DNA of 32,000 nucleotides from Pseudomonas nitroreducens NBRC 12694 (GCF_002091755.1 NZ_BDAI01000001.1:1128670-1160669), one strand, 5' to 3'; shown: positions 12,453 through 26,355, counted from the stretch's first letter. Notes: generated by a model not told the origin, from the sequence alone. Made by a program: numbers and translations.

Positions 12453-12462
12453 TACGCGCAAA
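12453..12462 (+). repeat. candidate outer att core copy, TACGCGCAAA (partner at 25701-25710)
   Basis: Exact 10-bp direct repeat with partially matching flanks. Under this model the 18-bp repeats and the TATCC motifs lie inside the element as arm-type sites. Confidence 0.35.
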
Positions 12463-12532
12463 TCGCCCATGGCGGACACCACGCATTCAAGCCATTGATC
12501 CATAAAGAATTTTCTTAAGCAATCAGATCGCA

Positions 12533-12550
12533 TGTCGAAGAAGTGTCGAA
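12533..12550 (+). repeat. 18-bp direct repeat TGTCGAAGAAGTGTCGAA: candidate attL core or integrase arm-type site
   Basis: Matches 25566-25583 (TGTCGAAAAAGTGTCGAA) at 17 of 18 positions, in the same orientation. Each copy is itself an internal GTCGAA duplication. Confidence 0.5.
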
Positions 12551-12679
12551 GCAATTCCCTGCCTTGTTACAAGGCGCCTCCACCCCACCACCCAGTGACG
12601 GTGAAATGCTGACGCTACCATCCAGCCCATGATAAAAGTAACCAACAGGGATCAAGCAGGAAGTGAAAGGAAGGCAAGA

Positions 12680-13867
12680 ATGCTTAGCGATGAAAATTTA
12701 GAGCAGCTTCGATATAAGGGCGAGAGTGTAGACCTAGACTTCAAACAAGCCCAGTATCCTTTCTCTGGCGCAACTGACCATCAGAAATCTGAATTACTGA
12801 AAGACATCCTAGCGATGGCTAATTCGTACCGGACAGAGCCGGGCCACATACTTATTGGCTTTAAAGACCAAACCCCGCACCCCGCAGAGGTTGTCGGGCT
12901 TACTGATAGCGATCATATTGACGACGCTACCCTTCAACAGTTCGTTCATAGCAAGGTGGCCCCAAACCTTGAATTCCAATACGAAGAACGCCTGTTCGAT
13001 GGCAAGCATATTGCGATCATCACCATCCCCAAGCAACCTCGACCATTTGCACCAAACAAAGATTATGGGAAATTAAAAAAGAACACTGTCTATGTGCGAC
13101 GTGGAAGCTCAACAGACGAGGCCTCAATCACCGAAATAGCAAAGATGGCGGTACTTGACGCAGGATCATCAAAGACAGCCCAAGTCAAATTACAAATCGA
13201 CACTGATAAAAACACTCCCTTGCCCGACCACTTAACCCTTCGCTTTTTGCGTTTCGAAACTCTTCCTGACTACGAAGAAAACAACTGGATAGACATGGGA
13301 TTTGGAATAAAACGGCAAATTCCCTCCATCACCCCTGTCAATAGCGACTACTACCGCGATTGCGCGGATTACTGTAGCACTAGAAGCCGAATGGCCCTGA
13401 TCAGGCTGTCACTGTCAAATAGATCAGATTTCTCGCTAAGAGAGGTTAAGCTCGAAGTATCGTGCGCCGCAAATCAAGGACAGACTATCAGAATGTTGCG
13501 CTCTGACGATCTGCCCGACGAGCCTGAATCTAAACTAAACCTTATTCACGGCGGAATTCAAGCAGTGGTAAATCGCATGAGGCAGAGAGTCATAATAGAT
13601 CAGCGCTCTCGCGATCCGATCTGCCATATAGACCTGGAAACACTTCGACCAGGCGAAACGGGCAGAGCAGAAACCGACATCGCAGTGCTTTTCAGTGGCC
13701 CAGGTGATTACCTAATCAAGTTCAGAATACTAGCCAATGAAATATCCGCCCCCATCACCCAAGAACACACCATCACCGTAACAGGTACAACGGAAGAATT
13801 GAGCTTTAATGACTTACAAGAAATAATTTACGGAGAGGGAACTCAAATTGAAAGCCCTACCCAATAA
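12680..13867 (+). CDS. AlbA_2/Schlafen-like (putative DNA/RNA-binding) domain protein with an uncharacterised C-terminal half
   Basis: ATG at 12680 preceded by GAAAGGAAGG. The N-terminal ~160 aa show AlbA_2 hallmarks: ESVDLDFK, LLKDILAMANS, GHILIGF.D, IAIITIP, VYVRRGSSTDEAS..EI. The remaining ~230 aa have no recognisable motif. AT-rich relative to neighbours. Confidence 0.7.
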   Translation: MLSDENLEQLRYKGESVDLDFKQAQYPFSGATDHQKSELLKDILAMANSYRTEPGHILIGFKDQTPHPAEVVGLTDSDHIDDATLQQFVHSKVAPNLEFQYEERLFDGKHIAIITIPKQPRPFAPNKDYGKLKKNTVYVRRGSSTDEASITEIAKMAVLDAGSSKTAQVKLQIDTDKNTPLPDHLTLRFLRFETLPDYEENNWIDMGFGIKRQIPSITPVNSDYYRDCADYCSTRSRMALIRLSLSNRSDFSLREVKLEVSCAANQGQTIRMLRSDDLPDEPESKLNLIHGGIQAVVNRMRQRVIIDQRSRDPICHIDLETLRPGETGRAETDIAVLFSGPGDYLIKFRILANEISAPITQEHTITVTGTTEELSFNDLQEIIYGEGTQIESPTQ

Positions 13868-13923
13868 CTTAAAAACCAACACTAACGCACGATAAGGAAC
13901 TACACACTCCCAACGTCTTAGAG

Positions 13924-14922
13924 TTACGAACAAGCATCAAGAGCAGACAATGGATTGAGTCGAATCGCATCTTGCAGATACTCGGGCGAAAGATGGGCAT
14001 AGCGCATCGTCATATTGAGCGACGTGTGTCCAAGAATCTCTTTGAGAGCAAGTATGTTTCCGCCATTCATCATGAAGTGCGACGCGAAGGTGTGGCGCAG
14101 CACGTGGGTGCACTGGCCTCTCGGCAGCACGATATTGCATCGCTTCACCATGCGAGCGAATGCCTCTCGGCAGCTCGGGAAGCGGTCCTTCTTAGTGAAA
14201 TAGGCCTCCAGGCGGTCTTGCAGCTCCTGGGAGATCGGCACAGTCCGTACTCGCTTCGACTTGGTGTTGGCGAACACCACACAGCCCGCACGAACCATCG
14301 GCCAAGTCAGTCGTTGAGCTTCCGACCATCTCGCTCCCGTCGCCAAGCAAATCTCTGATATCAGGGCCAAGTGTGGGAACGTCGAATAGTCCCGCAGTGC
14401 AGACACCAGGGTCGCGACCTGAGCTTTCGACAGGAACGACACCACTTCCTGCTGAGGCTTTAGCGGCTTCAATGTGTCCAGGGGATTGGCGTAGTCGATG
14501 TCACCAAGTCGGCGCAGCTCGGTATAGATGGACTTGAGGTAGGAGTAACGCACGTTGATCGAGCGCGGAAGTGCCCCCTCCTCCAACTCCACCTTACGCA
14601 GTGCAACCAAGTCTGAGACGGTAAACGTCTGAGCGATGGGATTGCCCAGCTTCGCAGCGATGAAGAGCAGCATGTTCCTGCGGCGCCGTCCGCTGGTGAT
14701 CGCATGCCCGTGCAGCTCATACCAACGCTCAATGAGCTGAGACAGTCGGCGTGTGTCCTTCGGCCTGGGATTCCACTCCGGTGTCACCGCCAGTTTCGCG
14801 CGCACTGACGCTTCGAAGCGTTGGGCCTCGCCCTTGGTCTTGAACCGCTTGCGGAAGCGCTTCCCCTTGATGGGTTCGACGTCGACGAACCAGCGACCAT
14901 CCTCCAGCTTGGTAATCGCCAT
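13924..14922 (-). CDS. int: tyrosine recombinase / phage integrase
   Basis: Catalytic region ATGARWSEA ... HVLRHTFASHF ... LGHTSLNMTMRYAHL (R..HxxR..Y). N-terminal arm-binding-type domain (GRWFVDV..GKRFRKRFKTKGEAQ). TAATG overlap with the rep gene. Confidence 0.92.
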   Translation of the reverse strand: MAITKLEDGRWFVDVEPIKGKRFRKRFKTKGEAQRFEASVRAKLAVTPEWNPRPKDTRRLSQLIERWYELHGHAITSGRRRRNMLLFIAAKLGNPIAQTFTVSDLVALRKVELEEGALPRSINVRYSYLKSIYTELRRLGDIDYANPLDTLKPLKPQQEVVSFLSKAQVATLVSALRDYSTFPHLALISEICLATGARWSEAQRLTWPMVRAGCVVFANTKSKRVRTVPISQELQDRLEAYFTKKDRFPSCREAFARMVKRCNIVLPRGQCTHVLRHTFASHFMMNGGNILALKEILGHTSLNMTMRYAHLSPEYLQDAIRLNPLSALDACS

Positions 14923-16217
14923 TAGATCGCGTACCCCCGCTTCAAGTACCGATCATTTATGAGTCCAATGACGTGCCTTTCGAGGTCGCGAGTGCTGTAG
15001 CCCTTGGCGGTGTAGTGATCCTCTATCACGTGCCAGAAGGGAAGCGTTCTCCCGACCTCCAGGGCCTTTTTTGGTGGCACGCGCTCCCGTGCGATCAGGC
15101 TGGCGAACTGGCCGAGAAACATCTCGCAGTTCTTGCCGGAGAAGCCCTGAGCCGTCTTGTAGTAACGGCGGTATTCGGTGCGATCAATGAGCGGATCGGC
15201 CTCTACCTGCACCTGGGTATCCAGGGTGATGAGCGACCAGAACGGATTGAACTCCTTCGGGCTGTCCAACAGCCGGAAGTTCTCACAGGCGTAGCCCCAC
15301 AGGCCTTGCAGATGCGGGCACAGCCCTGAGTACGTGCGGCAACCGATCACCTCGCCGGAGGTCATCGTGGAGCCTTCGGAGAACTGCTGTACCACCGAAT
15401 GGTGGAAGCGGAACTCGATACGCCACACCGTTTCCAGCGGGTTGAAGGCGGGTTCGCCATCACCGAAGGGATCGCCGTTGAGGGAAGCCCAGACGTTTTC
15501 CCAGTAGTCGAGCTTGTCGGTTGCCCGAGCTTGGAGCGTCTTGTTGTAGATGCTCAGTTGCAGGCCGCTGGCCGAGCCGAACATGTACGTTTCACCGCGA
15601 CCGTAGACCGAGGCGTTGCCGTCGAACTCGATACGCTCGATGCCGCTGATTTGGCGAACGCGCCGGGACCGGCAGTGCATGCGATCCACCAAGTCAGACG
15701 GAGGGGTCCAACCCTGCACATCAAGGGCGAGGTGCACAGCGCATTGGTTGGTTTCGCAGGCAGAAAGAACGCCTTCGGCCAAGTCATCGAGCACGCCTTG
15801 CAGGATCGATGGATCGGCTCCATCCAGGGCGTGCGGGGACACCTCAATCTTGAGGTGCGGGCCAATGTTCTCCAGCTTCACATTATGGTTCTTGATCAGC
15901 AGGATCAGGCCCATATCAGCGTTCTGTAGCCGGTACTGGTAGCCGGGGTCGCGACCAAGACGGCCCTTGGCCCACTGATACCCGGCGAACTCTACGATGT
16001 CTTCCGGCTCATCAAAGATCGCCATGATCTCGGGTCGAATCAGGCCGTTGTACAACTGGCGAACCGTATCTACGCCGCAGCGCAGCAGACGCACACCGGA
16101 AAGGTCAGTGAACTCCCCTGCCCTACTGCTGAAAAAGATGCGCCCTTTGGGCGACTCAAAGAACTGCCCGTCTTCCTGAAGTACTGCGCGAATCTGGTGT
16201 TCTGCTGCCTTAGTCAT
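14922..16217 (-). CDS. Pf-type replication initiation protein (gene II analogue)
   Basis: 431-aa ORF between zot and int, the position and size of the Pf1/Pf4 replication initiator. No independent motif verified by eye. Confidence 0.75.
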   Translation of the reverse strand: MTKAAEHQIRAVLQEDGQFFESPKGRIFFSSRAGEFTDLSGVRLLRCGVDTVRQLYNGLIRPEIMAIFDEPEDIVEFAGYQWAKGRLGRDPGYQYRLQNADMGLILLIKNHNVKLENIGPHLKIEVSPHALDGADPSILQGVLDDLAEGVLSACETNQCAVHLALDVQGWTPPSDLVDRMHCRSRRVRQISGIERIEFDGNASVYGRGETYMFGSASGLQLSIYNKTLQARATDKLDYWENVWASLNGDPFGDGEPAFNPLETVWRIEFRFHHSVVQQFSEGSTMTSGEVIGCRTYSGLCPHLQGLWGYACENFRLLDSPKEFNPFWSLITLDTQVQVEADPLIDRTEYRRYYKTAQGFSGKNCEMFLGQFASLIARERVPPKKALEVGRTLPFWHVIEDHYTAKGYSTRDLERHVIGLINDRYLKRGYAI

Positions 16218-16343
16218 GATTCAAACCTATCCAATGCTATCCAATGAGTAACTGGGTTATCCGACGTGTTACAGGGTCGTCGGCCGCGCCTTCGGCCTAC
16301 CGCTCGTGCCTGGCGCTCCCGGCCGGCGGCGCGGCTCGCCGAC

Positions 16344-16454
16344 TCAAAACGGAAACGCCGCCACCGGCTGCATCACCTGCAGGGCGGTCAGAAATCCGAG
16401 CGCATAGGCGAGTGCGAGCAGCCCTAGGGCGTTGATCAGGCCATGCAGGGTCAT
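16344..16454 (-). CDS. 36-aa hydrophobic peptide coupled to zot (speculative)
   Basis: ATG at 16452-16454 overlaps the zot stop (ATGA). Translation is [36 protein letters not shown], one TM-like helix. Below the ORF-track length cutoff. Confidence 0.3.
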
Positions 16455-17746
16455 TGGGTCCTCCAGGGGCGGGCGGGGTATTCGGAGTCAGGGACGATGG
16501 TCAGCGTTGGCCCTGCGGGCGCTGCTGGGGCGACTGCGACTTCTACGGATGGTGTTGCGGGCGTCTGCGCCGGCTTGGGGAAGGCTCCAGCGCACACCAC
16601 CGTCTCGTGGTAGCTCTGGTAGAACAGCTCGGCAACGCACTCGGAGCGGGGCCGCACGCGGTAGCCGGATTCGCTCAGCTGCTGCGAGTTGAGCATCAGC
16701 CGTCGCCCTTCTGGGTCGATGATGGCGAACAGGTAGACCGTGCCCTTCTTGCCGAACTGCTCGCCTTGCTTGTCGCCCTTCACCACGCCGGCCACGACGA
16801 TCTGCCGGCCCGCGAAGGGATGCTCAGCTAGTGGAAGAGTCGAAACACTTGGTTGGCCAAGTACAGAACTAGTAGGAAGAGTGCTACGCGCAGCAGCAGG
16901 CGTTGGAGCAGGTACAGCAGCCCCTTGAGGATGAGGCGCACTAGCTGGCTGAGGATGGGCAGGATCAGTTCCTTGCTGAGCGCCACCACCGATGACCTTG
17001 AGAGGTCCCATATAGCTGACAAAGCCAATAGTGCCGGCCAGCAGTGCCAGTAGAAGAACCAACTTAGGCGACCGGAAGAGACTCTTGCCGGCCTTGGTGT
17101 CCTGGGTCTTTCCGGTGGCGGTGGACTGGTAGAGGGCGAAGGTCTGCTTTCGGATTCGCTTGTATTCGACGATGGTGCCGTCAGCGGGTGGTCGGTTGAG
17201 CTGGGCGTCATGCTGGGCCTCCTTGTACCGGCCGGGGATACCGATGACCGCGAGGTTGGAGTGTTTGTAGGCCATCTCGCAGGTCATGCGGATGTCGTCG
17301 CGGATGTAGCTGATGTTCGGGGTGGTCAGGACGATGTCCCAGTTGAAGTGCCGGTGCCGGGTCCAGGCATCCAGCCAGCCCATGGGCCGATCCGCTTCAT
17401 GGGCCGCCTCGGGGCCGCCGGGGTAGTCGAATTTCTCCAGGTCCTTTTCACGCCAGGATTTGGGGAACAAGAGTTGGGTTTCATCAAAGATCAGGAACGC
17501 GCCCCGCGGCGCCCACTGAAACCACGTGCGCATCTTGTCGAGGTCGGCCAGCGATTCGAGATCGAGGTTGATGATCTGCGCGGAGTTGGGCAGCTGCGGG
17601 AAGACGCTGTAGGCGCGCTCCAGGGTGAAGCCACGGACGTTGGTGATGATGACGCGGCCATCCTTGAGGGCCGGGACGGCATCGTCTTGGATCGCACCGG
17701 AAGTTTTGTAGGAGCCGTTGGGGCCGTGGTGAATCTTGATCGACAT
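16451..17746 (-). CDS. zot: Zot-like assembly ATPase (gene I analogue)
   Basis: Walker [11 protein letters not shown] at the N-terminus, central TM segment ([15 protein letters not shown]). GGGAGGTGA Shine-Dalgarno. Position downstream of the minor coat gene. Confidence 0.9.
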
Positions 17747-17753
17747 GATTCAC

Positions 17754-18110
17754 TCACCTCCCAATGAAGGGCACAAAGCGCATACAGAAGCGTGTGGCCA
17801 GGGCGGAGAACAGGATGTTGAGGGCCTGCGGCACGCCGAGAAATTGCAGCGCGGCAGCCAGCGGGGCGGGCAACGTGGCGTACATGGAGCGCACCATGTT
17901 GGAGACGCCGAGGCTGTCGATCAGCTCGCGGGCGACGGTGTAGCTGACATCGAGCAGGAACAGGAAACCCTGGAGCGCGCTGTACATCGCCCACTTGGTG
18001 GCAACGACGAAGCCGTCCTTGATGAAGTCGTAGATGCCTTGGGTCATGAACTCCCAGATCCATTGGAAGAACAGGATGATCTGGTCGAAAGAGCTGGATA
18101 GCCATTCCAT
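17754..18110 (-). CDS. Pf minor coat / membrane protein (gene VI-like, DUF2523-type)
   Basis: 118-aa polytopic hydrophobic protein directly between coaA and zot, as in Pf1/Pf4. Confidence 0.7.
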   Translation of the reverse strand: MEWLSSSFDQIILFFQWIWEFMTQGIYDFIKDGFVVATKWAMYSALQGFLFLLDVSYTVARELIDSLGVSNMVRSMYATLPAPLAAALQFLGVPQALNILFSALATRFCMRFVPFIGR

Positions 18111-18114
18111 GAGG

Positions 18115-19302
18115 TCACTCCTTCAAAATGGCGAACGCGGCCAGCACCGATGCCATGAACATCAGCGCGTAGCGCAGGTAGGAGAGTTTTTCTTCGTAGG
18201 CGGTGAAGCAGAGGCTGACGCTCTTCTTCCACACGGTGAAGGTGTCGCAGGGGAGCTTGCCGCCGCCCTCGCCCAGGTTCAGGTCAAACACGCCTCTGAG
18301 CTGATCAGCGTTGGTTTTGATCTTGTCGCGGAAGGTGTCTTTGGCTTCTTCGACTTTGGCGTCCCACTCTTTGAGTGCTTCGTCCCAACTGCCCTGCTTG
18401 GGCTGCTCCAGTTCCTCCGTGGGGCCGTCGCCGCCATCGGAGCCGTCATCACCGCCACCGCCGCCGGTATTGCCGCCGTCGCCGCCACCCTCACCACTGC
18501 CCGTACCAGGATTGGTGCCGCCATCGCTGCCGCCGCCGTTGTTTCCGCCACCGTTGTTGCCCCCGCCCGAACCGCTACCGCTGTTGTTGTTTTCAGCGGG
18601 GCCGCCCGGTGTGGCGACACAGGTGGTGCCTGACCACGAGTAGCCGGGAAAGCAACGATGGTCGGGATCGACATCCGGCGGGGTCTGTTGCGCATTGGTG
18701 CAGCCGATGTAGCCGTTCACCGTTTTCACGCAATCGAACTTCTTGGCAAGGTCATCCAGATAGTCCTGTAGCGACTTCTCCGGATCGGTGCCGTCGGCGT
18801 TATCCGAGGGATCGTCATTGCCGCTGGGCGACATGTCGAATTCGCACTGCGTGGCGGTGCAGTTCTGCGGCTCGCCCGGCTCGTAAATGCAGTGATCCTT
18901 GATCTCCGGATCAACCGGGATTACGGCCTGCCCATCGACGAAGGAGAACTGGACAATCTTGGTGTAGGGATCGCGGGTCTTGCAGTCATCGTCGCTAGGT
19001 GCCGGAGGATCATCACAGGCACCTGTCGCGGAGTTATAAACCTTCGGCGCAACACACTCCGTTCCATACCTGTACGTCGAGCTGTACAAGTAATCCCGAT
19101 CATCATTTTCGCCGTAGCGATAGACACACTGAGCACTCCTGCCATTAGCACTCATATCAACCCGCTTAAATCTTGGGTAGATGGCAGTGCAAGCCGCAAC
19201 AGCAGAAGGCCATTGCCCAGAGCGCCCCGAGACAGTCCAGTAATAATCAGCGGACGCGGAGAAAGACAAAAAGAGCAGCACAATAAGAAATATATGCCGC
19301 AT
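18115..19302 (-). CDS. coaA: adsorption / minor coat protein CoaA (gene III analogue)
   Basis: ATG at 19302 with GGAGA Shine-Dalgarno. Signal peptide MRHIFLIVLLFLSFSASA, Cys-rich N-domain, long Gly/Asn/Ser/Asp linker and a C-terminal membrane anchor (LMFMASVLAAFAILKE). The longer ORF-track start would run through coaB. Confidence 0.8.
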   Translation of the reverse strand: MRHIFLIVLLFLSFSASADYYWTVSGRSGQWPSAVAACTAIYPRFKRVDMSANGRSAQCVYRYGENDDRDYLYSSTYRYGTECVAPKVYNSATGACDDPPAPSDDDCKTRDPYTKIVQFSFVDGQAVIPVDPEIKDHCIYEPGEPQNCTATQCEFDMSPSGNDDPSDNADGTDPEKSLQDYLDDLAKKFDCVKTVNGYIGCTNAQQTPPDVDPDHRCFPGYSWSGTTCVATPGGPAENNNSGSGSGGGNNGGGNNGGGSDGGTNPGTGSGEGGGDGGNTGGGGGDDGSDGGDGPTEELEQPKQGSWDEALKEWDAKVEEAKDTFRDKIKTNADQLRGVFDLNLGEGGGKLPCDTFTVWKKSVSLCFTAYEEKLSYLRYALMFMASVLAAFAILKE

Positions 19303-19316
19303 ATACCTATCTCCAT

Positions 19317-19345
19317 GAAAAAAGAACCCCGCCGAAGCGGGGTCC
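19317..19345 (-). terminator. rho-independent terminator/attenuator between coaB and coaA
   Basis: On the minus strand: GGACCCCGC-TTCG-GCGGGGTTC followed by TTTTTT. A terminator after the major coat gene is classic for filamentous phages. Confidence 0.6.
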
Positions 19346-19445
19346 AGGTTCGGCACTTGCAGTGCAGTCAGAAGAATTCGCCGCAGCGGTACCCGGTGAT
19401 GAAGGCGCCGGCGAAGAACGCCCCCAACCACACCGACCAGAGCAC

Positions 19446-19697
19446 TTACGCCTTGCGCAGCATGCTGTAGATCAGGCCGGCGACCGCGAGGATGACCAGG
19501 GCACCGACGATGTAGCCGCCGATGTTGGACATGTCGCCCTTGCCGTCGGTGATGGCCTGCTCGACCGAGCTGGTGTCGATGACGCTGGCGGCCCACACCG
19601 GCATCGAGGAGGCAGCGGTGACGGTGCCCGCGATGCAGACGTTTCGGAACGAGCGGATCGGGTTGAACTTGGCGATCTGTTGTTTCATGCCTTTCAT
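19446..19697 (-). CDS. coaB: major coat protein CoaB (gene VIII analogue)
   Basis: The mature part, ...VIDTSSVEQAITDGKGDMSNIGGYIVGALVILAVAGLIYSMLRKA, is nearly identical to the Pf1 coat protein as I remember it. The leader MKGMKQQIAKF... is also Pf1-like. Confidence 0.95.
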   Translation of the reverse strand: MKGMKQQIAKFNPIRSFRNVCIAGTVTAASSMPVWAASVIDTSSVEQAITDGKGDMSNIGGYIVGALVILAVAGLIYSMLRKA

Positions 19698-19710
19698 GGG
19701 TATTTCCTCT

Positions 19711-19962
19711 CTACTTGGCTTTACGAAGAAGTGACGCGACCCAGCCAGTTAAAAGCCCCGTCACGAATGCCCCGAGAACGCCCGCAGCACCGATGCTGAA
19801 GGCCTCCAGGGAGAACCCGCCGTTGACCAGGATTTCAATTGCTCCAGCGGCCTCGGGCGGAATCAGATAGGCCTGTTGCCATTCGATCTGCTGGCAGCGC
19901 ATGAGGCCGCCCGCCGTGGACGCCCAGCTGGTGCAGACCTGAACGGCGACCACGCCTGACAT
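19711..19962 (-). CDS. small Pf membrane protein (PA0722-position)
   Basis: 83 aa with a hydrophobic Gly/Ala-rich C-terminal helix ending LLRKAK. Tightly packed between neighbouring phage genes. Confidence 0.55.
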   Translation of the reverse strand: MSGVVAVQVCTSWASTAGGLMRCQQIEWQQAYLIPPEAAGAIEILVNGGFSLEAFSIGAAGVLGAFVTGLLTGWVASLLRKAK

Positions 19963-19963
19963 G

Positions 19964-20185
19964 TCAGCGGGCCTCCTTGCGTGGCTGGTCGCACCAGCCC
20001 CAGAAGGAGCGCAGGACGAACCACCACAGGGCGAAGAAGGCGAACGCAGCCGCGACCACAGCGATCACGGAATCCAGCGGGTAGGGTTCGAGGAATTCGC
20101 GCACCGCACGCACGGCAGGCGATACGGCGCAAAGGATTGCCACGTACAACACCCAGCCGAAGGCGAAACGGAGCGGCGCTTTCAT
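19964..20185 (-). CDS. small two-TM Pf membrane protein (PA0721/pfsE-position)
   Basis: 73 aa with two hydrophobic helices and an aromatic-rich end (FFALWWFVLRSFWGW). First gene downstream of the ssDNA-binding protein gene. Confidence 0.55.
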   Translation of the reverse strand: MKAPLRFAFGWVLYVAILCAVSPAVRAVREFLEPYPLDSVIAVVAAAFAFFALWWFVLRSFWGWCDQPRKEAR

Positions 20186-20201
20186 CTACCTACCCTCGCC
20201 G

Positions 20202-20636
20202 TCAGGACTTGCTGCTGTCGGAGGGTTTCTCAGCGGCAGGCTTCTCGCTGGCCGGCTGCTGAGTTGGGCGCTGGGCTTGTGCCTGGGGTTGCAGTTGGCG
20301 GCTCGGTGCGGGGGTGTGCACGTCCTTGCCGGTGGCGAGCAGTTCGGTCAGTACCTGGGTGTTCTTGGTGTTGCCGAAGCGGTCTTTGGTCGGGCGCACC
20401 ACGGTGGCGAACTTGCACAGCACCGGGGAGCCTTCGAAGACGATGGCATCGAGAAGGGTCGGCTCAATGTCGTACTGGGTGATTTCGAAGCCCTTGGCGT
20501 TGCCGCGAGCACCTTCTGGGATAGGGGAAATGGCCTGCACGCTGGCGAAGACTTCGCCGGAGGCTTTCGAGGTGAAGGTGTCAGTCTGGATGACCCACAG
20601 TTCAACGACACCGCCAGTGGTTGCAAACATGTTCAT
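20202..20636 (-). CDS. Pf ssDNA-binding protein (gene V analogue)
   Basis: ATG at 20636 with AAAGGAGAA Shine-Dalgarno gives 144 aa. The sequence MNMFATTGGVVELWVIQTDT...PIPEGARGNAKGFEI..Y.IEPTLLDAIVFEG.PVLCKFA.VVRPT.DRFG matches the Pf1 gene 5 protein from memory, with a Pro/Gln/Ala-rich tail. Confidence 0.92.
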   Translation of the reverse strand: MNMFATTGGVVELWVIQTDTFTSKASGEVFASVQAISPIPEGARGNAKGFEITQYDIEPTLLDAIVFEGSPVLCKFATVVRPTKDRFGNTKNTQVLTELLATGKDVHTPAPSRQLQPQAQAQRPTQQPASEKPAAEKPSDSSKS

Positions 20637-20973
20637 TGGTAGTTCTCCTTTTGCCTTTTTTAGGCATGAGTTGGCCCGCAACCTGATTAGGCTGTTCGCA
20701 TCAAATGGCGGGAATTACTGCCTTGCCGAATTATTCAAACATCTATTTCTACTGAAATTTCATACATCAATTAATTTCAGATAGATACTTTCAAACTGGA
20801 TACTGTTGGATAGGACACGACTCTATTTTTATGCCAACTTTCAATACATAAGAAAGTTTGATGTTCTTAAGAGAAACGTCGTAAGGACTCTGCCCTTACC
20901 ATCCCGCTCTCGCCGCCGAGGGCTCAGGAGCGCGGGGCGGTGGTGCTGCCCCTCACTCCCGCGCGGAGGCTAT
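20637..20973. promoter_or_regulatory. AT-rich non-coding region upstream of the structural operon (candidate promoter / origin / packaging region)
   Basis: No credible ORF. Markedly AT-rich. Contains the inverted repeat CTGAAATT (20752-20759) / AATTTCAG (20773-20780) and phased TGGATA copies at 20797-20802 and 20807-20812. Confidence 0.4.
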
Positions 20974-21180
20974 TCAGGGAGGGGGACGGTCAAGGGTGCG
21001 CTTCGCCCGGCGCTCCGTTTGACCGAACGGGAAAGCGCGTTCGGACAAGCCGGTGCGGCGGCCCTGGACCTGATTGGCCCAGGTGGGGATGGTGTGGCGA
21101 GCGTGGTAGCGGCCAATCACTGCACCAACCATCAGCAGGACGAGCCAGAAGATCAGGTGCGGGAGTGGGTTAGAGACCAT
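20974..21180 (-). CDS. small Pf protein with N-terminal TM helix
   Basis: 68 aa, LIFWLVLLMVGAVIG helix. Third-codon positions are mostly G/C. Starts 3 nt after the stop of the upstream ORF. Confidence 0.4.
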   Translation of the reverse strand: MVSNPLPHLIFWLVLLMVGAVIGRYHARHTIPTWANQVQGRRTGLSERAFPFGQTERRAKRTLDRPPP

Positions 21181-21781
21181 GGCTCAACCCTCCAGCTCGA
21201 AGGGGGCGCGCACGGGGACGAAGGGAGTCGGCCTGCCGCTGTCGTAGATAACGTGCCAGTACTTCGGGGGACGGAGCGCGGGCATGTGTTTCGCGCAAGT
21301 AGAACCCCGTTCCACCCGGTACGTCGAGTGGATCGAGCGCCACACTCCCGCGACCTTGGCCATCGTGGTAACGACCGTGAAGACTCGCGTAGGGCGGCAC
21401 TCGGTACAGGGTATGCACTGGGAGGGATCGGGCTTCGCCAGTTCGCGACGGGACCAGCAGACAGAGCAGTCGCAATCCGGGGCGTGAGGTTGACGAACGT
21501 ACTTCGACAGCATCGGAAGTCACCTCGCGATCAGAAGGCAGACGCGGATGAATCACAGCGAGAGAGAGCAGGCACCGCATAGAAGGAAGAACGTCATCAT
21601 CGCGGTTGGCTTCGACGGTCAAACGTGCGGAGGCAAGCTCCATCCGTCCTTCTTCATGGAATCGGCGCGCTGCATCTGCAAAGCCATCGGCCACTGCCTT
21701 GCGCATCAGCCGGAACGACATGCGCGCAGCGGCGAGTTTTTCTCGTACACGCTGAGCGCTGAGAGGAGAAAGAAGGCTCAT
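21170..21781 (-). CDS. ORF coupled to xis; 3-prime extent uncertain
   Basis: ATG at 21779-21781 overlaps the xis stop (ATGA). The first ~90 codons look protein-like (SAQRVREKLAAARMSFRLMRKAVADGFADAARRFHEEG). The frame then stays open across the 21184-21513 gene with an R/L/S/P/G-rich, off-frame-like composition. Confidence 0.3.
   Translation of the reverse strand: MSLLSPLSAQRVREKLAAARMSFRLMRKAVADGFADAARRFHEEGRMELASARLTVEANRDDDVLPSMRCLLSLAVIHPRLPSDREVTSDAVEVRSSTSRPGLRLLCLLVPSRTGEARSLPVHTLYRVPPYASLHGRYHDGQGRGSVALDPLDVPGGTGFYLRETHARAPSPEVLARYLRQRQADSLRPRARPLRAGGLSHGL
21184..21513 (-). CDS. Cys-rich small Pf protein (possible zinc-binding)
   Basis: 109 aa with CDCSVCW and CIPCTEC clusters. Third-codon positions are predominantly G/C when read by eye, supporting this frame over the overlapping one. 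Confidence 0.55.
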   Translation of the reverse strand: MLSKYVRQPHAPDCDCSVCWSRRELAKPDPSQCIPCTECRPTRVFTVVTTMAKVAGVWRSIHSTYRVERGSTCAKHMPALRPPKYWHVIYDSGRPTPFVPVRAPFELEG

Positions 21782-22002
21782 CAGAGGCCCTCCTGTTCCA
21801 GCAGATGACGATTCAACAGCGCCACATTCACCATGACGTGAGTTCCGATCTTGTAGCGCGGGATATACCCGCTCCTGATCCAGCCCCACACGATTTGCTC
21901 GTCGTCCCCCATTCCTATCCACCTCGCAAATTCTTTCCAAGGAAGAAGCGGCGGTGCCCCTCTGAGGTCGGCGACTGAAACTTTGACTCCATCCAAATCC
22001 AT
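21781..22002 (-). CDS. xis: excisionase / AlpA-type small HTH regulator (XisF-like)
   Basis: ATG at 22002 with AGGAG Shine-Dalgarno; 73 aa. The segment LLPWKEFARWIGMGDDEQIVWGWIRSGYIPRYKIG resembles MerR/AlpA-type excisionase HTH. Divergent from the repressor gene, as in Pf4/Pf5. Confidence 0.7.
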   Translation of the reverse strand: MDLDGVKVSVADLRGAPPLLPWKEFARWIGMGDDEQIVWGWIRSGYIPRYKIGTHVMVNVALLNRHLLEQEGL

Positions 22003-22034
22003 GACCCTACTCCTAGCACTCGACAACAAGGGAT

Positions 22035-22097
22035 CACCGTGGTCCACCGGCAGATAAAACCACCGTGGTCCCATTGCTGTCAAGACCACCGTGGTCC
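22035..22097. promoter_or_regulatory. three phased operator-like direct repeats in the xis / repressor divergent control region
   Basis: CACCGTGGTCC occurs exactly at 22035-22045, 22061-22071 and 22087-22097, i.e. every 26 bp, between the two divergent start codons. Confidence 0.6.
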
Positions 22098-22109
22098 ATC
22101 ATCGCCACC

Positions 22110-22529
22110 ATGAGCAGAGAAGACCCACAATTCAAACTTCGAATGCCGCAGTCCTTGCGAGATCAGGCGGAGCAGGCAGCCAAGAGTGCAAGCAGATCGC
22201 TAAACGCGGAGCTAGTTGCGCGCTTGGAGGCAAGCTTTCTCTCGGCCGCAGAACCTGGGGAGTTGATGCGTGCCGAACGGGCAAGGGAGCTCGCTGCAAT
22301 TGCGCGCGAGGGAGTTCCTGAAGAAATTCGGAGACGTGTACTAAAAGCGATCAACCGCGCCGTAGAGCTTGGGCACAGTGCGGTAATCGTGGATTTCAAA
22401 GACCTCAAGCTCGATGGAATGGCGGAACCCATCTTTGAGGAGCTGACACGCAATATCAGCCTCGAACTGACTAGTGCAGGCTACGAGATCGAATGGGACG
22501 GAGGGGCGGCACTCTGGATCAACTTCTGA
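22110..22529 (+). CDS. ribbon-helix-helix (Arc/MetJ-type) DNA-binding protein, candidate prophage immunity repressor
   Basis: ATG at 22110. N-terminus PQFKLRMPQSLRDQAEQAAKSASRSLNAELVARLEASF is a typical Arc-like RHH. Divergent to xis across the repeat-bearing operator region. Confidence 0.7.
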   Translation: MSREDPQFKLRMPQSLRDQAEQAAKSASRSLNAELVARLEASFLSAAEPGELMRAERARELAAIAREGVPEEIRRRVLKAINRAVELGHSAVIVDFKDLKLDGMAEPIFEELTRNISLELTSAGYEIEWDGGAALWINF

Positions 22530-22966
22530 TCAATCCTGCCCGCCACTAGACATCGCTTTCCGCTCCCGCGACCGTCACAGAGCGATCCTCATTCATCGCA
22601 CCAAGGTTCCGCCTCTCCACCCGCTCTTCGGCAAGTCAGGTAAACAGAACGGCTGGCTTTCGGGACAATCTCGTCTTGCCGGGATAACGCTCCTTACCTT
22701 TCTATGAGACAAGACGCCTGCGTCAAAGCAACCTATTGCTACCAGGTAGCTCTGCGCCGCACGAGGCTCTGGAGATGGGAAATGCTCGCCCCGATAGAAA
22801 ATCCTTAAAAATCAATAGCTTTATCAAAAGACCTCTTCGCTTTACGTCGGCCATCTGCTCTGGCAAATCGAATTTTCATACAGAAAAGTCGGAGAAATCT
22901 GACCCAAAGCCCGAAAACAGCGTGTTTACTTTGGTGTATAGTTAACGCAGTTTTTGTAATCCACCT

Positions 22967-23788
22967 ATGGGCTACCTCCTCATGACGTCTCGTACTGGCA
23001 TCCTGAAAAACTCCCCTCTCGCCCACGTGATTGCTTCCGTCCGGTTTGCGCCTTGGCCGCTCATCGCCAAGCACATGGCCGACATCCAAAATGCACTGCG
23101 AGAAATCGCACCGCTGATGAGCGAGATTCAATTGGAGCAGTTGGGACCAGATGGGCAACCGCTGGGAACTCCACGTCAGTCTTGGGTGCTGATAGCTGCT
23201 GACCACAGCTTCTCTATTCAGTTTTCTTCTGACCAGATGTTGATCCACTCATATAAATACTCTCGCTTTTCCGACTTTTCGGAGAGATTTGATAGATCAA
23301 TTTCAACCTTGCTTCAACATATGGGCTTTATTGACGTCATAAACATGGGCGTTAGATATATTGACCACATAAAACCAAAAAACAACGAAGATATAGAGCA
23401 ATATATAAACAAAAAATTCCTACCAGCAACTACAAGTGACCACAAATCAATCGGCGGACAATCAGTAGCCGACTACCTGATAAGCGAAACAACTCGCTTG
23501 CGAGTTAATATATTGAGCATGCCCGGCACTCCAAATCTTCCTCAGGATGTTATCAGTGTCTCCATGATGGATAGCGCTCCATATAGACAACTTCAAATTG
23601 AGGTTCTTCAGGAAAATCAGCTTACACTTGACATGGACGCAATATTTACCCCTCCGACTCCGTCCAGAATTAAGCGCGAAGATATTCTAGAAAAGCTGAA
23701 ATATCTTCATGATGTGAACAATGCATTCTTCAGGCACCCTGAAGTCTGCTCAGAGCATGCATTTAAAGTCTGGAAAGGAGAGCAGTAA
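22967..23788 (+). CDS. TIGR04255-like family protein (function unknown); cargo gene A
   Basis: Family-like landmarks from memory: N-terminal SPLAHVIASVRF, central MGVRYIDHI, LTLDMD, C-terminal NNAFFRH. The start could instead be the ATG at 22982. AT-rich. The stop overlaps the next ATG (TAATG). Confidence 0.7.
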   Translation: MGYLLMTSRTGILKNSPLAHVIASVRFAPWPLIAKHMADIQNALREIAPLMSEIQLEQLGPDGQPLGTPRQSWVLIAADHSFSIQFSSDQMLIHSYKYSRFSDFSERFDRSISTLLQHMGFIDVINMGVRYIDHIKPKNNEDIEQYINKKFLPATTSDHKSIGGQSVADYLISETTRLRVNILSMPGTPNLPQDVISVSMMDSAPYRQLQIEVLQENQLTLDMDAIFTPPTPSRIKREDILEKLKYLHDVNNAFFRHPEVCSEHAFKVWKGEQ

Positions 23789-24480
23789 TGGATTATTACG
23801 GAACCAACTCCCAAGCCTACAGCGCACCACCCTATATCATAGATAGCAAAAGCCTATTTACCTCTGGCGCCAGTGGCAGAAAGTTTCCAAATAAAAAGCC
23901 GCCGGCTACAGCAACAATCATTTTCAATACTGGGCATCAAAACATCAGCACAGGGGCAAGGCCGTTTAATGGCGGGAGAATTCGAGTCCTCATAAATGAT
24001 GTAGTATTTGAAACATCAAAAATAGAATTTAAAGAAACCCCAATAGAATCCACATCCGTAATAGCCTCACCGACAACAACATCAGAAAAACTATCACTAC
24101 TTCAGAGCTCCTTCGGAATATCAATAACGCAAATGTCCGACATTCTAGGAGTTACAAGAAAAACAATCTATGACTGGATTGACGGATCAGAGCCAAGACC
24201 TGCTTCTTCTCAGAAGATTGATATACTTACGGAGATCTCCGAAAGGCACTCCAACATCAACTTGTCGCGCCTAAAAACAGTCTGGAACATACCAATCAAC
24301 GGAAAGTCTTTACGCCAAGTATTGGCCGAAGACTCGACAGATAGGACTGGCGTGCTAGAAGATGCCTCTGCTAAAATCGCTGCGCTTGCCCCCAAGCTTG
24401 GGGCTCCAAGCAAGCCATCTAAGGCAAAGATAAGAATGGCTCACCTTTCTGATATTGACAGGGCATCAGATGTCGGATGA
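23788..24480 (+). CDS. XRE-type helix-turn-helix protein with an orphan N-terminal region; cargo gene B
   Basis: HTH ISITQMSDILGVTRKTIYDWIDG at about residues 120-142. The ~100-aa N-terminal segment looks low-complexity or disordered. The C-terminal tail (NIPINGKSLRQVLAEDSTDRTGVLEDA) is reminiscent of Xre/MbcA/ParS-type antitoxin C-domains. Confidence 0.72.
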   Translation: MDYYGTNSQAYSAPPYIIDSKSLFTSGASGRKFPNKKPPATATIIFNTGHQNISTGARPFNGGRIRVLINDVVFETSKIEFKETPIESTSVIASPTTTSEKLSLLQSSFGISITQMSDILGVTRKTIYDWIDGSEPRPASSQKIDILTEISERHSNINLSRLKTVWNIPINGKSLRQVLAEDSTDRTGVLEDASAKIAALAPKLGAPSKPSKAKIRMAHLSDIDRASDVG

Positions 24481-25366
24481 AGGTTTAGTTGAAGCTATCC
24501 GGAACAATGGATGGTGGCAGGGATCAGTGATCTCGGCCGCCGAGCTCAGTTCCTATCTGGAGCTGCCGGAAGGCATTGAGTTCCTAGTGGTCGCCTCTCA
24601 GACATGCAATCTCTACAACTTCAGTTTGACAAATATTCCTGTTTTCGAGCTGGTCGGCGCAAAACGTCTGGATAATTGTAATAACGCGTATACGAAAGGT
24701 GATCACCCTCGCATTCTACACCTAGAGTCAATCACTCAAGATCAAGAAACAATACTCCTCGAGGTCAATATATTACAACGATATTGGCTAGATCGCAGGA
24801 TATTAGCTTCCACATCTCCTATAGCATCTATTCGTGACTCATGCGACCTTCACGATCCAGACATCATGAAAAAGCAATGGCTGGACAAGTTTTCAGGATG
24901 GCTGGCCCGCAGCTATACCCGAGTAACCTTACCAGATGAATTTAATACCGCCCTCGAAAAGGGTCGATTGAAAAAATACATAAACAGTAAGCTAACGGCC
25001 GATGCAGACTCGCTACATGGTATATATTTTAACATCTCTCACGATAGCGAAGACCCGTATGATGGCTCGCTTGGCCTGATGCCGCCTCCCTACCTCTTGG
25101 AAATCACAGTAGTAACAAACTCCGGCGTTTCTTCAGAGTCTTTAGAAACCCGCATGAAACAGGAGCTTTTCGAGAGAAAAAAGAATGGAGATCAAGAGCC
25201 TCTTCCTTCTATCGCAGACACATGCCTTGCACAGGGTATTACCATCTCTGAACTAGGAATCATTGGCCGAACGACAGATGACTTGACACTTGGAGAGCTT
25301 AGCAACCTTACAAGATACTCCATGGTAGATCACCTTTCAGACTCAAAATTCTCCTCACCTGAATGA
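24470..25366 (+). CDS. orphan 298-aa protein; cargo gene C (candidate effector)
   Basis: ATG at 24470 lies 11 nt inside the end of gene B (the ORF-track start at 24455 is TTG). No catalytic or domain motif recognised by eye. Same AT-rich composition as genes A and B. Confidence 0.68.
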   Translation: MSDEGLVEAIRNNGWWQGSVISAAELSSYLELPEGIEFLVVASQTCNLYNFSLTNIPVFELVGAKRLDNCNNAYTKGDHPRILHLESITQDQETILLEVNILQRYWLDRRILASTSPIASIRDSCDLHDPDIMKKQWLDKFSGWLARSYTRVTLPDEFNTALEKGRLKKYINSKLTADADSLHGIYFNISHDSEDPYDGSLGLMPPPYLLEITVVTNSGVSSESLETRMKQELFERKKNGDQEPLPSIADTCLAQGITISELGIIGRTTDDLTLGELSNLTRYSMVDHLSDSKFSSPE

Positions 25367-25565
25367 CCACAAGTTTACTTTTAATTAATCCAATAAACTT
25401 AAACAAGCTTAACTCATTACACTCCAAAGCATTGCCACCCAATCACAGCCCAGCACATCAGCATCATCTATCCTTATATAAAAATAAATATAACCAACCA
25501 CTAATCAGTGAAATTTATTCCGCATTTTTTCGTTTGAATTCAACTGACCTTTGACAGCATACAGG

Positions 25566-25583
25566 TGTCGAAAAAGTGTCGAA
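25566..25583 (+). repeat. 18-bp direct repeat TGTCGAAAAAGTGTCGAA: candidate attR core or integrase arm-type site
   Basis: Matches 12533-12550 at 17 of 18 positions, in the same orientation. Confidence 0.5.
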
Positions 25584-25700
25584 ATTGCTGATCAGTGCTA
25601 TCCAAAGCAAACCAACTCGAGCTCCATGAAAGCCCCCTCCGTTCCTAATCTATCCGGAGCTTTCCAACGCTATCCACTCAAAAAGCCTGTCTAGCTTTTC

Positions 25701-25710
25701 TACGCGCAAA
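25701..25710 (+). repeat. candidate outer att core copy, TACGCGCAAA (partner at 12453-12462)
   Basis: Exact 10-bp direct repeat, 48 bp upstream of the DnaJ-related gene start. Confidence 0.35.
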
Positions 25711-25758: not shown

Positions 25759-26355
25759 ATGACGCGCGATCTCGATCCTTCCCTCGAACTGACTGACCAG
25801 CTTCTGCAGTTGCTACGGGAAGCGCATGAAGGAATCTCCGAATTCCAGCTGATCCAGCAATTGAAGGCTCGGCACTCCACTCACGTGCCCAACCTGCCGC
25901 TGACCGACAAGCTGGTGCTGTTCCGCACCCACTTTCTGGTGTTCAACGCGTTGTATCGCCTGCGCGACCAGCTCTGGGCGGAGGGCGCCGCGCACCTGGA
26001 GATCGGGCCGCTGCAGATTCGTCTCTCTCCTTTTATGAATGGCGCACAGGCCCTCGCCGAGCGGGACGCACTACGCGCCTACTACCTGGATGAGAAGCAC
26101 CTGAAGGAAACCACCGAGCACGATGTGGAGAAGTTGCTGGAAAGCTTCTGGACACGTATGCAGGGCAACGAGGAAAAAGCCGCGGCATTGGCACTCTTCG
26201 AGCTGGAGGACGGCCCGGTGGATTACGCGCTGATCAAGCTGCGATACCGCCAACTGGTGAGCCTGCACCATCCCGACAGAGGCGGCAGCACCACTCGATT
26301 GCAGTCGATCAACAAGGCGATGGAAATACTGGAGCGCTATTACAGCCGCCCGTGA
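25759..26355 (+). CDS. DnaJ-related protein with a C-terminal J domain
   Basis: C-terminal J-domain with HPD motif (YRQLVSLHHPDRGGS...INKAMEILERYY). The N-terminal part is typical of the DNA-J related family. Confidence 0.85.
   Translation: MTRDLDPSLELTDQLLQLLREAHEGISEFQLIQQLKARHSTHVPNLPLTDKLVLFRTHFLVFNALYRLRDQLWAEGAAHLEIGPLQIRLSPFMNGAQALAERDALRAYYLDEKHLKETTEHDVEKLLESFWTRMQGNEEKAAALALFELEDGPVDYALIKLRYRQLVSLHHPDRGGSTTRLQSINKAMEILERYYSRP

Follow-up and report, generated by a model that had tools for sequence, protein, structure and literature searches.

The window analyzed here is a 32,000-nucleotide stretch of DNA from Pseudomonas nitroreducens NBRC 12694 (GCF_002091755.1 NZ_BDAI01000001.1:1128670-1160669), in which a gene at 12680..13867 (+; positions counted from the first letter of the window) encodes a protein of 395 amino acids (aa; 44.6 kDa) that combines an N-terminal Schlafen/AlbA_2 nuclease domain with a C-terminal immunoglobulin-like (Ig-like) putative sensor domain. 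Based on homology, this protein is likely a prokaryotic Schlafen of the pSlfn5 type, a single-protein anti-phage system, carried on a Pf-like prophage. The system is of a known kind, in that its architecture is that of a class published in 2025-2026 and not a new one; what is modestly new is the Pseudomonas host, the proven carriage inside a filamentous prophage, and the recurring arrangement of Schlafen gene and integrase. An original prediction, made from the sequence of the window, had described the gene as prophage cargo encoding a stand-alone Schlafen-like protein; this observation is confirmed by the analysis presented below, and the interpretation attached to it is partly supported.

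Domain architecture and relationship to pSlfn5

The open reading frame (ORF) enclosing the gene spans 12629-13867 (+) and yields a 412-aa translation. The ATG at 12680 is most likely the true start, giving the 395-aa protein, because an AGGAAGG Shine-Dalgarno sequence lies a few bases 5' of it, because the NCBI protein P0001 of P. nitroreducens, which is 100% identical to the Schlafen protein, is annotated as starting at this ATG, and because the resulting N terminus lines up with those of all aligned homologues.

The Schlafen (SLFN_AlbA_2) nuclease domain occupies aa 1-160 (12680..13159, +) and was recognized by Pfam, by PADLOC and by a profile match to the PDB. The Pfam match to PF04326 (E=3.1e-16; 60.4 bits, cut-off 25.3) covers the first ~150 residues, or aa 32-165 in the numbering of the 412-aa ORF translation, in agreement with the earlier assignment of the first ~160 residues to the AlbA_2/Schlafen domain. 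The catalytic motif Ex4(E/D)xK can be read directly as E15-S-V-D-L-D20-F-K22 (12722..12745, +). An alignment inspected for conserved acidic catalytic residues, a check proposed along with the original prediction, revealed that E15 and D20, together with K22, are invariant across 35 homologues (44-71% identity). No helix-turn-helix (HTH) or HATPase_c_4 (GHKL ATPase) module was matched in Pfam or NCBIfam at E<=1, as had been anticipated. NCBIfam and PHROGs assigned no family to the protein as a whole, and Pfam, NCBIfam and PHROG contained none matching the C-terminal ~230 aa.

The C-terminal half, which had been regarded as an orphan, proved to be an Ig-like beta-sandwich (aa 166-385; 13175..13834, +), delineated by AlphaFold2 (AF2), Foldseek and homology and predicted to be a phage-sensor module. 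In the full-length AF2 model (mean predicted local distance difference test score, pLDDT, 85.8), this half consists mostly of beta-strand, and when modeled alone it is almost all beta, with a pLDDT of 91.9 and a predicted template modeling score (pTM) of 0.84. Foldseek searches of the PDB with the C-terminal half returned integrin alpha-chain ectodomains, CFA/I and CooA pilins, antigen I/II adhesin domains and TTHA1873, with integrin-ectodomain and other Ig-like structures among the leading matches. These searches fix the fold class of the model as an Ig-like beta-sandwich and identify no specific relative; a search of the viral structures in BFVD likewise returned generic Ig-like matches only. 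The modeled protein is devoid of a transcription-factor architecture.

A homologue search provided further evidence that this half is a conserved domain. The search returned 898 matches, of which the best 120 are described here; nearly all of these are 370-410 aa in length and align over ~90-95% of the query with 45-72% identity, and the C-terminal half is retained at full length in every one. It also contains invariant residues of its own in the 35-member alignment, e.g., P196, D197, N221, R226, N247, S249, E259, G342, R349 and P358. When only the C-terminal 230 aa were used in an exhaustive HMMER search of 1.84 billion representatives, 72 clusters were recovered, and in every full-length match the domain lies at ~165-390, behind an N-terminal domain of ~165 aa. 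Some matches were short (~225-245 aa) and consisted of the sensor domain only. They were considered as stand-alone sensors and rejected, given that all begin at a conserved internal Met156, and they are most likely truncated gene calls. The alignments thus indicate that the C-terminal half is the conserved domain of a sizeable family, and the description of it as an orphan is refuted by this conservation, by the Ig-like fold and by 38% identity to a Raoultella protein (see below). Within the family, mean pairwise identity is 64.6% for the nuclease domain and 41.3% for the sensor domain.

The connection to characterized proteins came from a PDB sequence search with the family profile, in which a match to CbCash, a CRISPR-associated Schlafen (Cash), led to two papers published in 2026. 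One of these defines pSlfn5 as a bacterial Schlafen defence family, with RorSlfn5 of Raoultella ornithinolytica as the model protein (Perez Taboada et al., Nat Microbiol 2026, PMC13056530). RorSlfn5 is a hexameric protein of 43.1 kDa that protects E. coli against T5; it is activated when its Ig-like domain binds the phage tail assembly chaperone, and it then carries out Mn2+-dependent cleavage of host and phage transfer RNAs (tRNAs) in the anticodon arm (PMC13056530). The same work identifies Ex4(E/D)xK as the catalytic signature, reports that E15A/D20A kills RorSlfn5 activity, and describes a Foldseek similarity of RorSlfn5 to integrin ectodomains as well as a conserved nuclease domain and a variable sensor across pSlfn5 (PMC13056530). 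Among the orthologues, SfoSlfn5 is 79.6% identical to RorSlfn5, and PagSlfn5, at only 39.6% identity, is still classed as pSlfn5 (PMC13056530).

A search seeded with the homologue from Serratia sp. J2 (described below) recovered a Serratia fonticola protein (P0121, 383 aa) and a protein of the Klebsiella/Raoultella group (P0123, 382 aa), whose cluster contains an R. ornithinolytica sequence (P0190, 382 aa). We infer that P0123/P0190 is RorSlfn5 or a near-identical allele because P0121 and P0123 are identical at 305/383 positions, or 79.6%, equal to the published figure for SfoSlfn5 and RorSlfn5, because the computed mass of P0123 is 43.0 kDa, compared to the published 43.1 kDa, and because the E15/D20 residue numbering coincides as well. 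In the window protein, E15 and D20 occupy the positions mutated in RorSlfn5 E15A/D20A. Aligned over the full length, the window protein and P0190 share 46% identity (E=5e-116), and the C-terminal half of the window protein alone shows 38% identity (E=1e-49). The full-length identity to the presumptive RorSlfn5 lends support to the earlier guess that the gene encodes a single-gene anti-phage RNA nuclease.

Carriage by a Pf-like prophage and by other mobile elements

The boundaries of the prophage were determined by comparison with empty sites. On seven contigs that encode exactly the TtcA protein of the left flank of the window, including the complete genome CP120376.1, a DnaJ-related gene lies directly beside ttcA; in the window, the DnaJ-related gene is found at 25759. 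One of these empty sites (L063; the six other contigs are alike) was aligned to both window junctions, and TACGCGCAAA, a single copy of which is present in the empty site, was found to be duplicated in the window, as the left (attL core, 12453..12462) and right (attR core, 25701..25710) copies of a 10-bp direct repeat. This alignment defines an insert of 13,248 bp (12463-25710). Inside the left end of the insert, past the integrase, the Schlafen gene comes first, which corroborates the original placement of the gene between the integrase and the left end of the prophage.

The tyrosine integrase (13924..14922, −; Pfam Int_N E=1.8e-29, Phage_integrase E=9.9e-23) is convergent with the Schlafen gene, as previously noted. 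It adjoins a Pf1-like core (14922..19962, −) with ~80% DNA identity to Pf1 and to the clinical PfAC phages, which comprises the replication initiator (14922-16217, −), Zot (16451-17746, −; Zot match E=4.6e-73), a DUF2523 protein (17754-18110, −), CoaA (18115-19596, −) and coat protein genes, and which includes a match to phrog_1159 at E=5.7e-222. The Schlafen gene is therefore cargo inside an att-bounded, Pf-like (Primolicivirus-type) filamentous prophage. Its GC content is 0.467, lower than that of the integrase (0.576), the Pf core (0.60) and the flanking chromosome (0.63), in keeping with its description as AT-rich. Other Pf phages carry defence systems in their accessory ends, among them Retron, ShosTA, Kiwa, Gabija and Avs (PMC11878078).

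The identical Schlafen protein was read on 15 contigs. In all six of the loci compared (L001-L006), the same integrase adjoins the gene, and in four of the six ttcA lies on the other side; identity among P. nitroreducens contigs is 100% for the Schlafen protein and 99.7-100% for the integrase. The Pf genes vary: in L002, Zot is 72%, the DUF2523 protein 73% and CoaA 30-57% identical to the window proteins, and in L006 the replication initiator (Rep) is 87% identical. Comparison of L002, L003 and L006 with the window (13924-19596) suggests mosaic Pf backbones that share one common integration-and-cargo module. The closest non-identical homologue (P0002, ~71-72% identity; L071 4860-6498) is convergent to a truncated integrase, a 120-aa fragment that matches residues 203-325 of the window integrase with 89% identity, and Pf genes are absent from its vicinity. 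This locus looks like a decayed prophage remnant in which the Schlafen gene has remained intact.

More distant relatives were found in a variety of mobile settings. Sources of the best 120 of the 898 matches include Xanthomonas, Stenotrophomonas, Marilutibacter (NCBI: Lysobacter maris), Halomonas, Serratia, Cupriavidus, Delftia, Aminobacter and many metagenomes. A Xanthomonas arboricola homologue with 62% identity (L056 10001-21179; L057) is arranged in the same geometry as in the window and is followed by a complete type II cyclic oligonucleotide-based antiphage signaling system (CBASS) operon (patatin, CD-NTase, ThiF/E1, JAB), beyond which lie an unrelated integrase and a filamentous prophage unrelated to Pf (Zot, gV-like single-stranded DNA-binding protein). 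The X. arboricola slot can be described as the window geometry with an extra defence system. The homologue from Serratia sp. J2 (49% identity; L055 3704-21152) directly follows the P22-type ejection-protein genes (gp7, Inj_translocase, gp16) of a P22-like prophage, in the region where P22 carries sieA/immI, and BrxR and a type I-E CRISPR-Cas system immediately follow. A Delftia homologue lies near an AIPR gene, the Raoultella/Klebsiella protein is found in AlpA/integrase islands, and relatives occur on 16 plasmids, at full length on five of them. A tblastn search with the Pf genes and integrase found Pf-like genes beside the homologue in none of 48 GTDB loci, and tblastn detected no homologue in 50,697 deposited phage genomes, Pf phages included. 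The survey of carriers proposed with the original prediction thus yielded prophages, integrative islands, plasmids and defence neighborhoods. Given the occurrence of homologues in prophages, integrative islands and defence neighborhoods, the family is mobile and defence-associated and is not a conserved chromosomal regulator.

Several other features of the prophage were noted. An 18-bp direct repeat, TGTCGAA(G/A)AAGTGTCGAA, occurs near both ends; the left copy, TGTCGAAGAAGTGTCGAA (12533..12550, +), contains two tandem GTGTCGAA units and lies 71 bp inside the left end, the right copy, TGTCGAAAAAGTGTCGAA (25566..25583, +), lies ~118 bp inside the right end, and the two agree at 17/18 positions. 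This repeat, TGTCGAARAAGTGTCGAA (12533, 25566), was considered as the att core and ruled out, as the empty site puts the junction at TACGCGCAAA. Because the copies lie inside both ends of the insert, they are predicted to be, and probably are, arm-type integrase binding sites. The other end of the prophage holds an AT-rich cargo cassette (22967..25366, +), separate from the Schlafen gene, which consists of three overlapping genes (45% GC) encoding a TIGR04255-family protein (273 aa; NCBIfam E=5e-30), an HTH protein (230 aa) and a conserved hypothetical protein of ~300 aa. The last of these has no match in Pfam, PADLOC or PHROG, and its ~130 homologues are all named 'hypothetical'. The same gene order (267+230+302 aa) is found again in P. 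viridiflava (L080) and in P. citronellolis (L079), where Abi_2, DUF3987 and an integrase lie next to it; the segment 22967-25366 is a mobile cassette that possibly encodes an undescribed defence or toxin-antitoxin-like system. In addition, a gene for an Arc-like DNA-binding protein (22065-22529, +; Pfam Arc E=2.5e-12) is divergent from a 102-aa ORF (21781-22089, −), and this region is probably the repressor/excisionase switch of the prophage.

Proposed mechanism and alternative explanations

By homology with pSlfn5, tRNase activity, dependence on a trigger and a defence phenotype are predicted for the window protein. The Schlafen domain would act as a metal-dependent RNase with E15, D20 and K22 as catalytic residues. 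The protein would idle, probably as an oligomer, and its nuclease would remain inactive until the C-terminal Ig-like beta-sandwich is bound to a protein from an infecting phage. Once activated, the enzyme, probably also oligomeric in this state, would cut host and phage tRNAs in the anticodon arm, and the cleavage of tRNA would stall translation and lower phage yield. Carried as a moron by a Pf1-like prophage, at the integrase end, the gene would protect the lysogen, and hence the prophage itself, from other phages, probably tailed ones. No fixed limit is set on the size of a filamentous phage capsid, and the Schlafen gene should therefore travel with the Pf genome. Filamentous phages are not known to have a tail assembly chaperone, so that self-triggering by such a chaperone should not occur.

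A number of points weigh against this assignment or against its details. The identification of P0190/P0123 as RorSlfn5 is circumstantial. The sensor domain of the window protein shares only 38% identity with its Raoultella counterpart, and two of three pSlfn5 orthologues tested provided no defence against an E. coli phage panel (PMC13056530), so that neither activity nor specificity can be transferred to the window protein. The Foldseek matches of the C-terminal half to the PDB reach E-values of 1e-5 to 1e-7, those to integrin alpha ectodomains, pilins and adhesins going down to 8e-6, with TM-scores that are modest (0.3-0.45). A simple scan detected no sigma-70-like promoter upstream of the gene on the + strand, and promoter and terminator scans around the gene were uninformative. 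Moreover, homologues of the T5.142 tail assembly chaperone were found in 909 phage records; Vibrio, Salmonella, Escherichia and Klebsiella phages dominate this set, and the ten organism names that occur most often in it do not include Pseudomonas. In light of the 38% identity of the sensor and of the mainly Vibrio and enterobacterial origin of T5.142 homologues, the trigger probably differs from a T5-type tail assembly chaperone.

The protein might instead be an AlbA_2-type DNA-binding regulator of prophage or host genes, and not a nuclease. Homologues are named 'helix-turn-helix domain-containing protein' or 'AlbA family DNA-binding domain-containing protein' at NCBI, and ~62% of the bacterial proteins with a Slfn domain carry it in fusion with HisKinase and/or HTH modules (PMC13056530). 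However, Pfam and NCBIfam detect no HTH or ATPase domain in the window protein, its C-terminal half is modeled as an all-beta Ig-like fold, the catalytic E/D/K triad is invariant, the closest characterized relative is a tRNase, and the homologues are scattered in mobile and defence contexts and not in conserved chromosomal operons. The original prediction had named a plain transcription-factor architecture with conserved chromosomal homologues as grounds for abandoning it; what was found is an all-beta C-terminal half and mobile contexts. An HTH/ATPase regulator is therefore rejected on the domain and fold evidence, and the probability that the protein acts as a regulator of any AlbA_2 type appears extremely small. 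It is also very improbable that the gene is a silent or decaying passenger, that is, an intact-looking ORF acquired by horizontal transfer with no function in this host. While its GC content of 0.467 in a host of 0.63 and the lack of an upstream promoter consensus would fit with such a passenger, the ORF is intact and retains all of the family-invariant residues, the protein is 100% identical on 15 contigs, including loci (L001-L006) with differing Pf replication and structural genes, and low GC is typical of defence cargo and is shared by the cargo at the other end of the prophage (0.45).

A function centered on Pf itself deserves more weight but is still improbable. In this case, the Schlafen nuclease would serve the Pf life cycle or competition among filamentous phages, either through Pf superinfection exclusion or as an addiction module comparable to PfiT/PfiA, which presumably occupies the same post-integrase slot in Pf4. 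The pairing of Schlafen gene and integrase would be consistent with such a role: the pair is identical in loci that differ in their Pf genes for replication and structure (Rep 87% in L006, Zot 72% in L002), the closest homologue is kept beside a truncated copy of the same integrase without Pf genes, and the 62%-identical homologue in Xanthomonas adjoins an unrelated filamentous prophage. However, the Schlafen protein is the product of a single gene, no partner ORF of antitoxin size lies between the integrase and the att site, most homologues lie far from filamentous phages (0/48 GTDB loci have adjoining Pf-like genes), and the characterized relative senses a tailed-phage protein.

The sensor might recognize a trigger of another class than the T5-type chaperone, possibly a protein of a rival Pseudomonas phage, rival filamentous phages included, with the Schlafen-integrase pair constituting a semi-autonomous defence module. 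The latter is suggested by the persistence of the pair where Pf backbones have been swapped (L002, L006) or lost (L071), and the pair may have been independently recruited beside an unrelated filamentous prophage and CBASS in Xanthomonas. We consider this combination of a different trigger class and a semi-autonomous module doubtful as it stands. If it were correct, the post-integrase end of inoviruses would be a recurrent hotspot for defence cargo, and tRNase immunity would be spread by non-lytic virions.

If the gene is of the pSlfn5 type, the family extends from the tested Enterobacterales proteins to Pseudomonas, and one of its genes resides in a filamentous-phage (inovirus) prophage, the boundaries of which are proven by the comparison with empty sites. 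Because filamentous phages lack tails and leave the host alive when they are secreted, a Pf phage that encodes a tRNase responsive to proteins of tailed phages could arm its host without itself setting off the enzyme, and could spread immunity horizontally. The diverged sensor would provide a natural test of how Ig-like sensors become retargeted to new phage proteins. The gene is thus a candidate for experiments on Pf-mediated phage resistance, while knowledge in kind is unchanged.

Comparison with known systems

The accessory cargo of Pf phages, including PfiT/PfiA of Pf4, resembles the Schlafen gene in its position at a variable accessory end beyond the integrase and in the presumption that such genes are host-protecting morons (PMC11878078). 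The proteins themselves are unrelated to the Schlafen protein, which is the product of a single gene and not part of a toxin-antitoxin pair.

Eukaryotic Schlafens (SLFN11/12/13/14) and SAMD9 share with the window protein the SLFN_AlbA_2 domain and the catalytic carboxylate motif, and they share with its predicted activity antiviral tRNA cleavage (PMC13056530). In contrast with human SLFN11, in which a two-lobed N-terminal nuclease domain is joined through a linker to a C-terminal helicase (PMC13056530), the window protein has one AlbA_2 domain detected by Pfam and an Ig-like putative sensor.

The PDB sequence search with the family profile matched only CbCash (PDB 9ylu), with the alignment to 9ylu_A (E=8.5e-5, residues 39-158) confined to the N-terminal Schlafen domain. 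The Cash report (PMC13462974) describes an enzyme of type III CRISPR loci that cleaves tRNA and is switched on by cA4 via a Csx15 Rossmann-like sensor. The Pfam scan of the window protein reported no Csx15 or cyclic-oligoadenylate sensor domain, and no CRISPR locus was found in the window, the neighbors of the Schlafen gene being ttcA and Pf genes. The PADLOC candidate PDC-S50 is similar in profile length (387), and its N-terminal part matches the window protein (E=3.1e-15). However, the match is limited to profile positions 8-158 and leaves the C-terminal half of the profile unaligned, so that PDC-S50 looks like a sister architecture with a different sensor.

The closest correspondence is with pSlfn5. 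Both are proteins of ~380-395 aa with an N-terminal Schlafen nuclease domain carrying Ex4(E/D)xK at E15/D20/K22 and a C-terminal Ig-like beta-sandwich with integrin-ectodomain-like Foldseek matches; both combine a conserved nuclease with a variable sensor and occur as single-gene systems on mobile DNA. The window protein differs in that its gene resides in Pseudomonas and is carried by a filamentous Pf-like prophage, in that its sensor has diverged to 38% identity from that of the presumptive RorSlfn5, and in that its activity is predicted from homology, the identity to the same protein being 46% over the full length.

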